From Escherichia phage phiEc_1, in the sequence record LC768462.1: a stretch of 64,000 nucleotides of DNA. One strand, written 5' to 3'. The notes under the pieces were generated by a model. That model made no database searches. It was not told where the DNA came from and worked only from the letters and a program-made list of their open reading frames with translations. Positions 23,471 to 36,217 of this stretch are shown piece by piece; position 1 is the first letter of the stretch, and each line of letters begins with the position of its first letter. Both the position numbers and the translations under genes were made by a program.

Positions 23471-25261
23471 ATGTCAAAGATCATTTTGGGAGACACAGGT
23501 TGTAAGGAATGTATCTCTCATGGTCGTGATAAAACCCACAACCACATGATTCTCTTCCGTAACGAAGAGACTGGTGAGGAGTGGGGAAGTTGTAACCGTT
23601 GTGGGAATTACGAAGTGTTCGAAAAGGGCACTACACCTACTCCAAACGAGAAGAAAGAGTTATCCCCTGAAGAGTTGAGAGAAGTCTTAGATGATTGCTT
23701 AGAGCTTCCTCAGGGTGAACTTACTCGCCGTTTAATCCCTAAAGCTGTATCAGAGCGGTTTGAGTGTCGTATTGGCCTCAGTCAAACTGATGGTCAGACA
23801 CCAGACAGTTACTTCTTTCCTCGTGAACGTGATGGAAACATTGTCGGGTATGAGGTGAAGCTGCTAGATAGTAAGAAGTTCTATTACGTCGGCAGTGTGA
23901 AAGAGGCAGACCTATTTGGTATGGCACAAGCTCAACGTGGAGATGTGTACAACAAGAAGCTCTTCATTTTTGAAGACCCGCTATCCTGTATGTCAGGTTT
24001 CCACGTCCTTACAGCTTTTACAAATGCAACAAACATTAAACCAGCATGTGTTTCTTTACCGTTCGGTGCAGGTTCAATCTCTTCTGTGTTGTCTCGTAAT
24101 CGAGACTTCGTAAATGGTTTTGAGGAGGTTGTGCTCTGCATGGACAACGATGATGCAGGTGAGATAGCTTTAACAAAAGGTCGTTCTTTATTCCCTCATG
24201 TTAAGTTTGCTCGTATTCCTAAAGGAACTTTCCCATACAACGGTGTGGAGAAAGAGATTAAGGATGCGAATGACATGCTTCTGTCTGGTCGTGGTCAAGA
24301 GTTATTCAACATTCTCAAGTATTCAGCAAAGCGGGAATCTCCTGCTGGTGCTGTAACAATCTTTGATTGCCTTGATGATGCTCTGAAGAAAGCGGAGTGG
24401 GGTATTCCCTATCCGTGGAAAACTCTTAATGAGATGACCTTCGGTATTCGATGGGGAGAGGTGGTAGCAATTGGCGGTGGTGTAGGTAGTGGTAAAACAC
24501 TGATTGCTCACGAGCTGGTTGCTCATCTGTGCTTAGAGCACGGTTTTAATGGGGGTGGCTTCTTCTTGGAAGAGAAGGTAGGCATGTCTGTTAAGAACAT
24601 CGCTGGTAAGTCAGCATCGATTCCTTTCCACCGACCTGATGTTGAATATGACGAGGAAGATTTGCGTAATGAAGCACTTCGTTATGCAGACAAATTCTTC
24701 TTGTATGACAACTTCGGACAGAATGAATGGGAAGACATTAAACAGTGTATCCGTTTCTGGGTAGTTGAAAACCAGTGTAAGTTCATCATCCTTGATAACA
24801 TTACCGCTCTGGTATCTCATTTAACACCTTCAGAGATTAACACTGAAATCAGTAAGATTGCTTCCGAGCTTGCTGGTATGTGTAAAGAATTAGACTTTAC
24901 CGCTTTCGTGCTATCTCACCTTAATGCTCCGGCAGGTGGTGCTCCTCATGAAGAAGGTGGACAGGTACGTGAAGTACAGTTCACTGGCTCTCGTTCTCTT
25001 ATGCGTTGGTGTCAGTGTATCATTGGCTTTGAGCGTGACAAGCAAGCTGACGGCTTAGCTAAGAACCTCTCAGTCATTCGATTACTGAAAGAACGTAACT
25101 ACGGTCAGACAGGTGTCTGTTATACTAAGTATATCAGTGAAACCGGTAGACTTGTAGAAAGGGAAGACTTTGAAGTTGATGAAGATAATCCATTCGTTTT
25201 AACTAACGGAGAGGATGCAGCTTCTCTCGTCAACCAAGCAGATGGAGCTTCACCGTGGTAA
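23471..25261 (+). CDS. DNA primase-helicase (T7 gp4-like)
   Basis: N-terminal CxxC...CxxC zinc finger; Walker [10 protein letters not shown]; Walker [11 protein letters not shown]; GGAGG SD. Confidence 0.85.
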
Positions 25262-25812
25262 AGAAAAAGAAGAAAGTGTTTGCATTCGATATCGAGAGTA
25301 ATGCACTATACGATGACATAACTAAAGTATGGTGTATTTATATCTTTGATGTTGAAACTGGTGAAAGGTGGGGCTATCGGCCTCACCAAATTGAAGACGG
25401 GATTCGTAAACTTACAGAAGCAGATGTACTAGTGGGTCATAATATTATTGACTTCGACTTACCTGCTCTGAAAAAGATGTATCCTTCTTTGATTAAATAT
25501 AATTTTAACGTCTTTGACACTTTATGTCTTAGTCGATATCTTAAACCTGATCGTATTGGTGACAGTCCTGAGTATCCGAAAGGCGACCCTAGACGTGGCC
25601 CAAGAGGTCACGGCTTGAAGCAATGGGGTGAGTTCTTAGGGGAACTTAAAGGTGACTACGGTGAGCAAGAGGAAGCATGGGATGCTTTCACTGAAGATAT
25701 GTTTACTTATTGTGAACAGGACGTTAACTTAACTGTTAAGGTTTATCTTTTCTTGTGTGAACTCACGGGATTTGACCCTTACGACCCACCTTCATTATAT
25801 TGGAAAATGTAA
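25255..25812 (+). CDS. 3'-5' exonuclease (family-A polymerase proofreading domain) as a separate gene
   Basis: Exo I FAFDIES, Exo [15 protein letters not shown], Exo III YCEQDV; start codon uncertain (GTG 25255 or GTG 25276). Confidence 0.75.
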
Positions 25813-25813
25813 A

Positions 25814-33942: not shown

Positions 33943-34356
33943 ATGCCATTACCAGCTAGACACCAAAACCGTTTCCTAGTTCTCAAGTGGGATGATATTG
34001 AAATGAATCTCACTGAACATGAACTGGACTTGTTTCATGAATTATTATCAGAAATTCGCTCTGGTATTCCTGAACGTCAGTATGTGGTTATAAGCGATAA
34101 GCACCCTCAAGAGTTTGAAGAAGCTTGGGGTATGAAACTGGCTTACATCCAAAGAGCTATTCGAGAAAGAGAAGAAGTTGCTAATCAAAGAGTTGTGGCT
34201 CATCTAGTCAGAGAACAGCCTCGTGAAGTTAGGTCTTCTTATTCTCCATCTACTTGGGCACAAACAAATGCAGCAATGAGAACATACGCTGTTGATTCCA
34301 CATCCTTGGATGTAGTAGAAGATAACCAAGCATTTACAGATTTACTTTACCAATAA
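33943..34356 (+). CDS. hypothetical protein
   Basis: ORF track. Confidence 0.55.
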   Translation: MPLPARHQNRFLVLKWDDIEMNLTEHELDLFHELLSEIRSGIPERQYVVISDKHPQEFEEAWGMKLAYIQRAIREREEVANQRVVAHLVREQPREVRSSYSPSTWAQTNAAMRTYAVDSTSLDVVEDNQAFTDLLYQ

Positions 34357-34372
34357 TTTAAAGGAGTATAAA

Positions 34373-36217
34373 GTGAGCAACCCGGACGCTCTTCCATTTT
34401 TGACAGAGATGACTGTCGCTGATATAATCTCTAAGCAAGCAAAGCACGGAGTGAGTTTCAACCGAAGAAATGCTCGGTGGTATGTTCACCTCCTTAAAGA
34501 GATTATTGTTAATATTGACAGAGAGTTGATTCCTCTCTTACCTAAGATGAGATTAGATGGCTCTACTTACATGAAGCCGTTTAAGAAGTCTGGAGCTTTA
34601 CAGAAGTGGCCTCAAGCCTATTGTGATAGGGTTGGGCTGAAGAGAGAAGACATTGGTGGAGCTTTCACCTGTGTCGAATACGTAGACTTTGACCCATCGA
34701 AAGATGCACGAGTTAAAGAAGCTCTTATGGATGAGGGCTTTCTTCCTCCAGAGTTTAACGTATCTAAGAAGCCTTGGAATACTTTCGAAATTAAGAAAGA
34801 TATGAGAAAGTATGGAACATACCAAGCATGGTATACTGCTTGGATGCGAGGAAATGCTAAGCAGAAGCAGACAGCCGAGATGGTTGACGCTGATATTAAG
34901 AAGTTCTTAGAAAAGCATTTTAGGTTTAAAACTAAGAACTATATGAAGGCTTACGTATTTGGTTTGGGATTAAACCCGAATCGTCGTAATCCTGTAACGT
35001 TTGATGAGATTAAGAAAGCGCTAGCCACATCAAACAAGTGGCCTACAGCTCCTACAAACCTCGAGGAGACTCTTGAAGAAGGGTTAGGGGGTGAGCTAGG
35101 GAGTGTCGGAAGTTTGCTTAAGAGACGCGTTGTAGCGGCTCACAGGCTAGGTCTTATCAGTGGACTTATAGCAAAGGAACGCGAAGATGGTAAACTTTCG
35201 GCAGAAGCTAACAGCTGCGCTACGCCGACTTTTCGATTCAAACATCGTATCGTTGTTAATATTCCCTCCCGTGGTTTGTTTGGTCATGAGTGTCGCAGTT
35301 TGTTTGAGTCTGACTATAACTCAGACAGTGATCATTCTCGTCCTTTCGTTATTACTAACGTTGTTCCTGATGGTTGTTATATACGAAAAGGTACTAACGT
35401 AATTTACGAGAAAGGTAAGCCGGGGAAGAAAGACAAACCTGTAGGTGCTTACAAATATTACATACCCGCTGGTAAAGAAGTATTCTTAGGGTATGATGGT
35501 TCTGGACTTGAACTTCGTATGCTCGCTCACTACCTCATTAAAGAGTGTAGGGATATGCTTGCTGAGGCTATCGAAGAGAACAACCCAGCTAAGAAAGCTC
35601 TGGCAGAACGTGGTTTAGCTTCTGCTATTATGTATCGTGATATTCTCCTTGAAGGTGATATCCACTCCCACAACCAGAAACTTGCTGGTCTTCCTACTCG
35701 TGACAACGCTAAAACGTTTATCTATGCATTCAACTACGGTGCTGGCGATGCTAAGCTTGGTTCAATTGTAGGTGGTGGGGCTGACGAAGGTTCAGTGATG
35801 CGAGCACGTTTCTTAGCAGAGAACCCATGTATTGCAATCCTCATTGATCGTATGACAGAGAAAGCTGCTCAAGGATACTTGATTGGAGTTGATGGTCGTA
35901 AGATTACAATGAGACGGGATGCCACTGGTAAGGTTATGGTTCATAAAGCCCTTAACACACTCCTGCAATGTGCTGGTGCTGTTGTTATGAAATATGCTAT
36001 GATGTTCCTTAACAAGTGGATTGAGAAAGATAAGGTTCGTTGTGCTAAGGTAATTGATATGCACGATGAAGGTCAATTCTCAGTAAACCGTAATGATGTA
36101 CAGAAACTCAAAGAGCACACCGAGCTTTGTGTTAAGAAGGCTGGTGAGTATTTGAACATGGAATGCCCTCTGGCTTCTGATTGTCAGATTGGACTTAACT
36201 GGATGCACACACACTAA
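34373..36217 (+). CDS. DNA polymerase, family A, polymerase domain only
   Basis: Motif A DGSGLELRMLAHY, motif B RDNAKTFIYAFNYG, motif C HDEGQF; GTG start after AAGGAG; no exonuclease motifs in this ORF. Confidence 0.85.
   Translation: MSNPDALPFLTEMTVADIISKQAKHGVSFNRRNARWYVHLLKEIIVNIDRELIPLLPKMRLDGSTYMKPFKKSGALQKWPQAYCDRVGLKREDIGGAFTCVEYVDFDPSKDARVKEALMDEGFLPPEFNVSKKPWNTFEIKKDMRKYGTYQAWYTAWMRGNAKQKQTAEMVDADIKKFLEKHFRFKTKNYMKAYVFGLGLNPNRRNPVTFDEIKKALATSNKWPTAPTNLEETLEEGLGGELGSVGSLLKRRVVAAHRLGLISGLIAKEREDGKLSAEANSCATPTFRFKHRIVVNIPSRGLFGHECRSLFESDYNSDSDHSRPFVITNVVPDGCYIRKGTNVIYEKGKPGKKDKPVGAYKYYIPAGKEVFLGYDGSGLELRMLAHYLIKECRDMLAEAIEENNPAKKALAERGLASAIMYRDILLEGDIHSHNQKLAGLPTRDNAKTFIYAFNYGAGDAKLGSIVGGGADEGSVMRARFLAENPCIAILIDRMTEKAAQGYLIGVDGRKITMRRDATGKVMVHKALNTLLQCAGAVVMKYAMMFLNKWIEKDKVRCAKVIDMHDEGQFSVNRNDVQKLKEHTELCVKKAGEYLNMECPLASDCQIGLNWMHTH

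Follow-up and report, generated by a model that had tools for sequence, protein, structure and literature searches.

Separate exonuclease and polymerase genes for a T7-like DNA polymerase, with a thioredoxin gene between them, in Escherichia phage phiEc_1

We analyzed a window of 64,000 nucleotides (nt) from the genome of Escherichia phage phiEc_1 (sequence record LC768462.1; all positions are those of this window, and + denotes the plus strand). In this window, a family-A DNA polymerase of the T7 gp5 type is encoded by two separate genes, one for a 3'-5' proofreading exonuclease (25255..25812, +) and one for the polymerase (34373..36217, +), and a phage thioredoxin gene lies between them (29870..30145, +). 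The split and the idea of a thioredoxin partner have both already been published for this phage group; the observation is correct and not new. This study modestly adds the description of the gap between the halves as a variable cargo site, from 1.6 kb to >19 kb across relatives, and the presence of a large thumb insertion in every exonuclease-less homolog examined.

Our reading, to which we assign a probability of roughly 0.8, is that a T7 gp5-type polymerase gene was split long ago, precisely at the boundary between its exonuclease and polymerase domains. The exonuclease gene would have stayed beside the gene for a T7 gp4-like primase-helicase, and the polymerase gene now lies 8.5 kb downstream. 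The two halves most likely re-associate non-covalently, giving a gp5-like heterodimer at the replication fork. The space between them would have become a variable cargo bay for genes encoding a nucleotidyltransferase, a dCTP deaminase, a Dps-like protein, a thioredoxin, ThyX, an Nlig-Ia domain, and PhoH, and, in relatives, ribonucleotide reductases. As part of this cargo, the thioredoxin most likely serves thiol-redox support of the deoxynucleotide supply or redox homeostasis.

Two complementary genes of a T7-type polymerase

The exonuclease half (25255..25812, +) is a standalone protein of 185 amino acids (aa) with a GTG start, equivalent to residues ~1-200 of T7 gp5 according to Pfam, PDB matches, alignment, and an AlphaFold2 model. 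An earlier inspection of the letters alone (the sequence-only reading) had placed a 185-aa proofreading open reading frame (ORF) with motifs Exo I-III at 25255-25812, and this ORF is present there with its catalytic residues intact. Residues D12 and E14 (Exo I), H62, N63, and D68 (Exo II), and D156 (Exo III) were invariant among 34 family members and T7, and Y152 (Exo III) was nearly invariant. The protein matched the Pfam family DNA_pol_A_exo1 (E = 1.3e-8), and its only PDB sequence matches were to T7 gp5 (residues 3-178, phmmer E = 1.5e-12). BLASTP aligned its residues 12-181 to T7 gp5 5-196. In the AlphaFold2 model, the mean predicted local distance difference test (pLDDT) score was 91.8, and the best 27 Foldseek matches of this model in the PDB were all T7 gp5 (E = 3.0e-11; query-normalised TM-score ~0.7), with ExoI and TREX-like proteins at lower ranks.

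Close homologs of the exonuclease, 101-247 aa in length, were standalone in all cases (65/65). In an exhaustive search of 1.84 billion representatives, 2,850 matches were obtained, and lengths were taken from the best 150. Among these best 150 matches, 38 were of <=250 aa and 80 were fused polymerases of >=550 aa, and the closest four were standalone. Since standalone and fused forms are mixed in this set, the standalone form represents a branch inside the exonuclease domains of T7-like fused polymerases.

The GTG start codon of the exonuclease gene is preceded by GGAG 7 nt upstream, and it overlaps the stop codon (TAA) of the primase-helicase gene by 7 nt. This overlap makes it probable that translation of the exonuclease gene is coupled to that of the primase-helicase gene, and the same 7-nt overlap is kept in the metagenomic relatives L010 and L011. 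In Salmonella phage 7-11, a putative endonuclease gene (L012 11962-12378) lies between the primase-helicase and exonuclease genes and thereby breaks the overlap of start and stop codons seen in Kuravirus.

The polymerase half (34373..36217, +) is a polymerase-only family-A DNA polymerase of 614 aa, equivalent to T7 gp5 residues ~205-704, with motifs A, B, and C and the C-terminal His. The sequence-only reading had described exactly this 614-aa ORF at 34373-36217, and the three motifs proved to be intact. Its GTG start lies six bases 3' of AAGGAG. The Pfam family DNA_pol_A was matched over residues 361-611 (E = 2.5e-23), and the top PDB sequence match was T7 gp5 (phmmer E = 1.2e-32). T7 gp5 was also the first Foldseek match (E = 7.8e-26) of the AlphaFold2 model, which had a pLDDT of 92.5 and a predicted TM-score (pTM) of 0.82. 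Among 86 homologs, D375 and E380 of motif A, R443, K447, and Y451 of motif B, and H564 of motif C were invariant, and D565, E566, and the C-terminal His (H614) were nearly invariant. The catalytic residues aligned to D475, R518, K522, Y526, D654, E655, and H704 of T7 gp5. Homologs down to ~38% identity were almost all polymerase-only (488-618 aa), with a few fused relatives at ~43% identity (P0115 and P0116), and the catalytic residues of both halves were conserved down to ~32-38% identity.

These catalytic motifs, together with T7 gp5 as the closest solved relative, identify the protein as a T7-like family-A polymerase (PolA cluster 5, cd08643). The exonuclease domain, which is a feature of the same polypeptide in this cluster, is here a separate ORF 8.5 kb upstream; a 'separate 3'-5' exonuclease domain' is a recognised variant of PolA cluster 5 (PMC10201439). 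In the MAFFT alignment, residue N3 of the polymerase stands opposite T205 of T7 gp5, directly past the exonuclease domain. Since exonuclease residues 12-181 correspond to T7 5-196, the two ORFs tile T7 gp5 without overlap, and the alignment that the sequence-only reading had proposed thus gave complementary coverage (185-aa ORF, ~1-200; 614-aa ORF, ~205-704). A complete exonuclease domain within the 614-aa ORF, which would have spoken against a split, is absent. A vestigial exonuclease in this ORF was also considered and ruled out, as no trace of such a domain emerged from Pfam, the alignment, or the AlphaFold2 model.

T7 gp5 with E. coli thioredoxin (PDB 1T7P, 6N7W) was the top match of both halves by sequence and fold. 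T7 shares with the window the order of helicase, then exonuclease and polymerase, the Tyr of motif B, the C-terminal His, and a partly homologous insertion at the thumb tip. Unlike the proteins of the window, T7 gp5 is a single polypeptide, uses host thioredoxin, and has a thioredoxin-binding domain ~25 aa longer (about 76 aa, between helices H and H1). The thumb-tip element of the window polymerase (residues 53-107, 55 aa; 34529..34693, +) is homologous to T7 gp5 283-335 by phmmer and MAFFT, which is the C-terminal two-thirds of that domain. By MAFFT, the polymerase has nothing that corresponds to T7 gp5 258-282, a stretch with Y265 and a large part of the 'backwards loop' (272-290). The element was 49-58 aa long in all 86 homologs, fused or split. 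T327, V329, and E330 of T7 correspond to T99, V101, and E102, E319 to R91 or E92, and, in the phmmer alignment, C313 to C84; these five T7 residues are among the thioredoxin contacts named in a molecular dynamics study (PMC5984650).

In addition, the polymerase carries three insertions that T7 gp5 and the fused relatives lack. The first is an ordered, mostly helical thumb insertion (residues 126-232; 34748..35068, +), recognized by alignment and in the AlphaFold2 model, in which helices 137-218 mostly had pLDDT >=90. It adds ~85-95 aa to this part of the thumb compared with T7 or the fused relatives, and it was present in 79/79 polymerase-only homologs vs 0/6 fused homologs. By tblastn, it was found only in phages of the phiEco32, 7-11, Privateer, GAP52, Aeromonas, and Vibrio types (C3-type). 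The second, a beta-rich insertion before motif A (residues 312-369; 35306..35479, +), varies in length among split polymerases and is absent from T7 and fused relatives. The third, a helical insertion after motif A (residues 388-422; 35534..35638, +), occurs in the phiEco32, 7-11, Vp_R1, and BUCT695 types (C3-type) only, and not in LUZ24-like phages.

The polymerase gene is uninterrupted in the window and interrupted in some relatives. The gene of Bas89 is annotated as a join of two pieces, the polymerase clusters P0014-P0017 (449-460 aa) cover only the N-terminal ~72-74% of the query, and the BUCT695 polymerase (P0099) ends in motif B. These interruptions fit the insertion of an intron or a homing endonuclease, as in LUZ24 (PMC3517423). 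Additionally, a perfect sigma-70 consensus promoter (TTGACA, 17 nt, TATAAT, with an extended TG; 34400-34428, +) lies inside codons 10-19 of the polymerase gene. It is the sole 12/12 match in 16 kb, and phiEco32, Bas90, and EcM-vB1 have the identical sequence. In Kuraviruses of ~78% identity (4E8, Bas89), the -35 element is degenerate and TGATATAAT is invariant. Transcripts from this internal promoter cannot encode the full polymerase.

Distribution of the split and the cargo between the halves

By megablast, the region 25255-36217 matched 98 deposited phage genomes, nearly all of which are from phiEco32-group (Kuravirus) phages of Escherichia or Shigella. Nucleotide identity over this region was 98.1% in MN03, 96% in Bas90, and 92.6% in NJ01 (published Kuravirus range, 92-98%), and a 221-nt stretch at the polymerase start was 100% identical in phiEco32. 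We read the region as the middle-gene module for replication and nucleotide metabolism in a phiEco32-like Kuravirus. The same locus, with 92-98% identity over its whole length, is found in the phiEco32-like Kuravirus phages of the Gordonclarkvirinae (phiEco32, SU10, NJ01, MN03, YF01, and Bas86-Bas94); these relatives differ slightly in the small ORFs of the gap, and some of them (Bas89, P0014-P0017) have the interrupted polymerase gene. The Bas90 record lists 'DNA primase/helicase', 'DNA polymerase exonuclease subunit', 'thioredoxin domain', 'thymidylate synthase', and 'DNA polymerase' in this order, and both halves are named 'DNA polymerase, family A' in the EcM-vB1 record.

The halves had been described as lying about 8.5 kb apart with ten or more genes between them. 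The gap (25813-34372) spans 8,560 nt with about 24 genes on the plus strand, each of which belongs to a known PHROG family. The first gap gene encodes a nucleotidyltransferase of 437 aa (25814..27127, +; phrog_12715, 3.6e-241; weak PolyA_pol head domain) and is followed by a dCTP deaminase gene (27137..27670, +; Pfam DCD, 3.6e-34). A gene for a Dps/ferritin-like 'DNA-binding protein' (28633..29244, +; Pfam Ferritin, 1e-6; phrog_3636, 8.8e-55) lies just upstream of the thioredoxin gene, as it does in the closer relatives L010 and L011. The gene for the flavin-dependent thymidylate synthase ThyX (30161..30817, +; Pfam Thy1, 1.2e-43) starts 15 nt 3' of the thioredoxin gene. Further downstream are genes for a standalone Nlig-Ia domain of 107 aa, named 'DNA ligase' in relatives (31360-31683, +; Pfam Nlig-Ia, 2.7e-35), and for a PhoH-like ATPase (32059..32796, +; Pfam PhoH, 6.2e-57). 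The product of the 107-aa gene is the NAD+-binding Ia domain of LigA-type ligases, with neither adenylation nor OB domains. The gap also contains tandem paralogs of small genes (27671-28286, 29305-29679, and 33239-33779, +), comprising three copies of phrog_4939, two of phrog_9296 (small membrane proteins), and two of phrog_6814.

The order of primase-helicase, exonuclease, cargo, and polymerase on one strand was constant in Bruynoghevirus, 7-11, L010, L011, and Vp_R1, and the gap is a variable cargo site filled mostly with nucleotide-metabolism genes. T7 has gp4 followed by the fused gp5 and no gap, and a fused metagenomic relative (P0116) has a primase-helicase gene, a ligase-like gene, and a fused exonuclease-polymerase gene, also with no gap. 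In Bruynoghevirus clash, the primase-helicase gene, 'part I', six small genes, and 'part II' are arranged with a gap of 1.6 kb. In Salmonella phage 7-11, the gap is 6.7 kb, and the order is helicase, HNH, exonuclease, dCTP deaminase, PhoH, thioredoxin, ThyX, Dps-like protein, and polymerase. The metagenomic relatives L011 and L010 have the layout of the window with gaps of 9.4 kb and 10.8 kb, respectively. In Vibrio phage Vp_R1, the exonuclease gene is followed by genes for NAMPT, PRPP synthetase, ThyX, ligase, NrdAB, PhoH, and MazG, and the gap exceeds 19 kb.

Bruynoghevirus (LUZ24-like; 'DNA polymerase part I / part II') has the same fission point as the window and the same order of amidoligase, glutamine amidotransferase (GATase), ATP-grasp, gamma-glutamyl cyclotransferase (GGCT), primase-helicase, exonuclease, cargo, polymerase, and 5'-3' exonuclease. 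Its polymerase is 39-42% identical to the window polymerase and also has the thumb insertion. Unlike the window, its 1.6-kb gap of six small genes holds no thioredoxin, ThyX, or dCTP deaminase gene, and its polymerase lacks the insertion after motif A.

The fission is ancient and common to Bruynoghevirus, 7-11, Vp_R1, and Privateer-like phages. In the simplest history, a gp5-like gene would have split once at the domain linker, and the cargo would then have grown between the halves. Separate genes for the polymerase and the 3'-exonuclease were described in every LUZ24-group phage (PMC3517423, 2012), and a similar split was reported for phiEco32 by Savalia et al. 2008, as cited in that paper. 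The separation was later described as common to all Kuravirus-like phages, 7-11, Privateer, Vp_R1, and BUCT695 (PMC9965538, 2023).

Replicase assembly and the role of the thioredoxin

The sequence-only reading had also noted a thioredoxin-like gene with a CAPC site at 29870-30145, between the halves, and this gene is indeed present (29870..30145, +). It encodes a protein of 91 aa (Pfam Thioredoxin, E = 2.1e-13, 50.6 bits vs a cut-off of 23.5) with 34% identity to E. coli TrxA. Its residues 4-88 align to residues 24-107 of E. coli thioredoxin in the PDB; the ~20 residues at the N-terminus that form strand 1 and helix 1 are absent. All homologs were similarly short (15/15 of 74-92 aa). Most phage thioredoxins lack the first 20 residues (bioRxiv 10.1101/2025.10.05.680603); therefore, the truncation is not special to this phage. 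In the family (17 members including that of 7-11), the CxPC pair, the cis-Pro (S-I-P) loop, and the equivalent of G92 were invariant. The window protein keeps the equivalents of R73, I75, cis-Pro76, and G92; K90 is replaced by L, and G74 is replaced by S in Kuravirus-type members and retained as G in 7-11. The buried charge pair of E. coli thioredoxin is seemingly swapped in this family (D26 to Lys; K57 to Glu, Ser, or Asp), and Trp31 of the WCGPC motif is not conserved.

In phage records, tblastn found homologs of the thioredoxin only in Escherichia, Shigella, Proteus, Cronobacter, and Salmonella phages of this group and in one crAss-like contig. Apparent absences by tblastn (E <=1e-5) in Salmonella 7-11-like, Aeromonas, and Vibrio phages were set aside as unreliable, because 7-11 has a diverged thioredoxin. 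A local search with a hidden Markov model (HMM) recovered this diverged protein as a positive control (1e-26); within the regions fetched for it, no thioredoxin was found in 24 kb of Bruynoghevirus clash, in the Vp_R1 gap, or in the gap of the phage carrying P0023. In the relatives compared, the thioredoxin gene was always in the gap between exonuclease and polymerase, beside genes for ThyX, a Dps-like protein, dCTP deaminase, or PhoH (see also PMC7881722). In the close relative SU10, mass spectrometry detected both the polymerase and the thioredoxin protein, and thioredoxin was among the few middle genes common to the five C3 phages compared in that study (PMC4281155).

The sequence-only reading had also raised the possibility that the phage supplies its own processivity factor, a part played by host thioredoxin in T7. 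The complementary polymerase halves stand as described; the phage thioredoxin is a possible processivity factor, and the thumb element is unchanged in relatives in which no thioredoxin was found in the regions examined. On balance, a redox role is more likely for the thioredoxin than that of a processivity factor. Among the 86 homologs, no feature of the polymerase followed the occurrence of the thioredoxin: the thumb tip is constant, every split polymerase has the thumb insertion, and some phages without a thioredoxin in the gap share the insertion after motif A. The invariant CxPC pair, cis-Pro loop, and G92, and the neighbors shared in every relative, likewise point to redox function.

In the alternative, the truncated thioredoxin would sit on the shortened thumb tip and act as processivity factor, as TrxA does for T7 gp5, so that three phage-encoded proteins would form a holoenzyme independent of host thioredoxin. 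Coupling of this kind was proposed for Privateer (PMC7881722, 2021). We regard it as possible but unlikely in this phage. The polymerase is of the T7 gp5 type, and its thumb tip (T7 283-335) retains the named contact positions T99/V101/E102, R91 or E92, and C84; however, about a third of the binding domain, including Y265 and much of the 'backwards loop', has no counterpart. The thumb element also has the same length and motif in clash, Vp_R1, and the P0023 phage, where no thioredoxin was found, although host thioredoxin could still serve these lineages. On the side of the thioredoxin, retention of R73, I75, cis-Pro76, and G92 would suit such a contact, but K90 and, in Kuravirus-type members, G74 are substituted, and both Cys are strictly conserved, yet T7 uses thioredoxin in a redox-independent manner. 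The gene lies among those of nucleotide metabolism, and the E. coli host already provides abundant TrxA. The presence of thioredoxin in all C3-morphotype phages compared, with or without ribonucleotide reductase (PMC4281155, PMC7881722), and the T7 gp4-like acidic tail of the helicase, with its terminal aromatic residue, speak for the alternative.

The nearest comparable systems also speak against a role as processivity factor. The thioredoxin of cyanophage Syn5 resembles that of the window, with ~20 N-terminal residues missing, a CxPC site, and a gene near that of a T7-type polymerase, and the same two hypotheses, electron donor of a reductase or processivity factor, were raised for it (bioRxiv 10.1101/2025.10.05.680603). 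It is the only phage thioredoxin studied experimentally, and it is redox-active and boosts genome replication; in AlphaFold3 models it gave a low interface score and a different site, whereas host thioredoxins dock as in T7 (bioRxiv 10.1101/2025.10.05.680603). Unlike Kuravirus, Syn5 has its own ribonucleotide reductase and a fused polymerase (bioRxiv 10.1101/2025.10.05.680603, PMC9965538). The S-SBP1-like T7-like cyanophages, like the window, have two genes for the exonuclease and polymerase domains and a shortened thioredoxin-binding region, and AlphaFold2 gave no complex of the S-SBP1 polymerase with host thioredoxin (Czernecki et al. 2023, PMC10201439). In S-SBP1, the genes are adjacent and separated by a recent frameshift (PMC10201439), whereas the halves in the window are 8.5 kb apart and their fission is shared by several phage families.

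A further idea, which we consider improbable, assigns the adaptation to the enlarged thumb. The thumb insertion, which is adjacent to the shortened thioredoxin-binding element, would make the split workable, either by holding the exonuclease in trans or as a built-in clamp, and the phage thioredoxin would be a third subunit in C3-type phages. Kuraviruses would then have a fully phage-encoded three-subunit family-A replicase with no dependence on host TrxA. The correlation between thumb insertion and split may simply reflect common descent.

Returning to the two-subunit replicase, the halves are complementary, catalytically intact, and conserved together across several phage families, and therefore a holoenzyme assembled from separate exonuclease and polymerase subunits is the natural inference and our best reading of the sequences. 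Several observations weigh against this reading as a whole. The exonuclease gene is coupled to the helicase gene and not to the polymerase gene, so recruitment through the helicase is possible instead. Kuraviruses have no ribonucleotide reductase (PMC9965538), and the obvious phage-encoded redox client of the thioredoxin is thus missing. The occurrence of thioredoxin in all C3-type phages compared, reductase or not, is at least as compatible with an essential role in replication as with an auxiliary metabolic one (PMC4281155, PMC7881722), and the polymerase keeps the strand that contacts thioredoxin in T7 (T327/V329/E330). We found no biochemical test of subunit association or of thioredoxin-polymerase coupling in the literature, and a literature search on Kuravirus and trxA returned nothing.

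It is very unlikely that the 185-aa protein is an independent nuclease, serving host-DNA degradation, recombination, or primer or flap processing, or that it acts via the primase-helicase and leaves the polymerase with no dedicated proofreading. The distance of 8.5 kb from the polymerase gene and the coupling to the helicase gene would agree with such a role, and DnaQ-like exonucleases do occur free-standing, with ExoI and TREX-like proteins lower in the Foldseek list. However, in both sequence and fold the protein is nearest to exonuclease domains of T7-like polymerases and not to free nucleases, and the end of the exonuclease ORF and the start of the polymerase ORF fall exactly at the T7 domain linker. 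Both genes also occurred together in every lineage examined, and for the comparable split of S-SBP1, where association of the two products was inferred from AlphaFold, AlphaFold2 recovered the fused architecture (PMC10201439).

Because split genes often turn out to be sequencing artefacts, we also considered a frameshift, an assembly error, or a pair of decaying pseudogenes as the origin of the split; nothing spoke for this, and its probability is negligible: the same arrangement in 98 deposited phage genomes rules out a chance pattern or assembly artefact, distant families share it, about 24 intact genes separate the halves, each half has its own ribosome-binding site and catalytic residues conserved to the identity levels given above, and the polymerase protein was seen in SU10 (PMC4281155).

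Proofreading and polymerase proteins that are naturally separate offer a system for studying the coupling of these two activities in a family-A replicase. In addition, an E. coli host with available trxA mutants, combined with a phage-encoded thioredoxin, could settle whether phage thioredoxins ever act as processivity factors, a question on which Syn5 supplies the only protein tested to date, and the indication from it is negative (bioRxiv 10.1101/2025.10.05.680603).

Other genes of the locus

A third activity of the Pol I type is encoded by a separate gene downstream of the polymerase gene. The product of 43175..44017 (+) is a FEN-like 5'-3' exonuclease (Pfam 5_3_exonuc_N, 5.8e-7, under the gathering score), and its homologs in 7-11 and clash are annotated as 5'-3' exonuclease. 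The 5'-3' exonuclease has been listed as a separate subunit (PMC9965538).

The primase-helicase gene (23471..25261, +) encodes a T7 gp4-like protein of 596 aa, identified by Pfam DnaB_C (9.9e-11), a weak Toprim_2 match, and the annotation in Bas90. The C-terminus of this protein (25160-25261, +) is an acidic tail with a terminal Trp and resembles the tail of T7 gp4. The T7 gp4 tail is acidic, ends in Phe, and binds the polymerase thumb, as also indicated by the title of PDB entry 6P7E.

Directly 5' of the primase-helicase gene, the segment 17277-23251 (+) encodes an amidoligase, a glutamine amidotransferase, an ATP-grasp protein (RimK-like), and a gamma-glutamyl cyclotransferase. This block, from amidoligase to gamma-glutamyl cyclotransferase, is syntenic in Kuravirus, Bruynoghevirus, Vp_R1, and 7-11.

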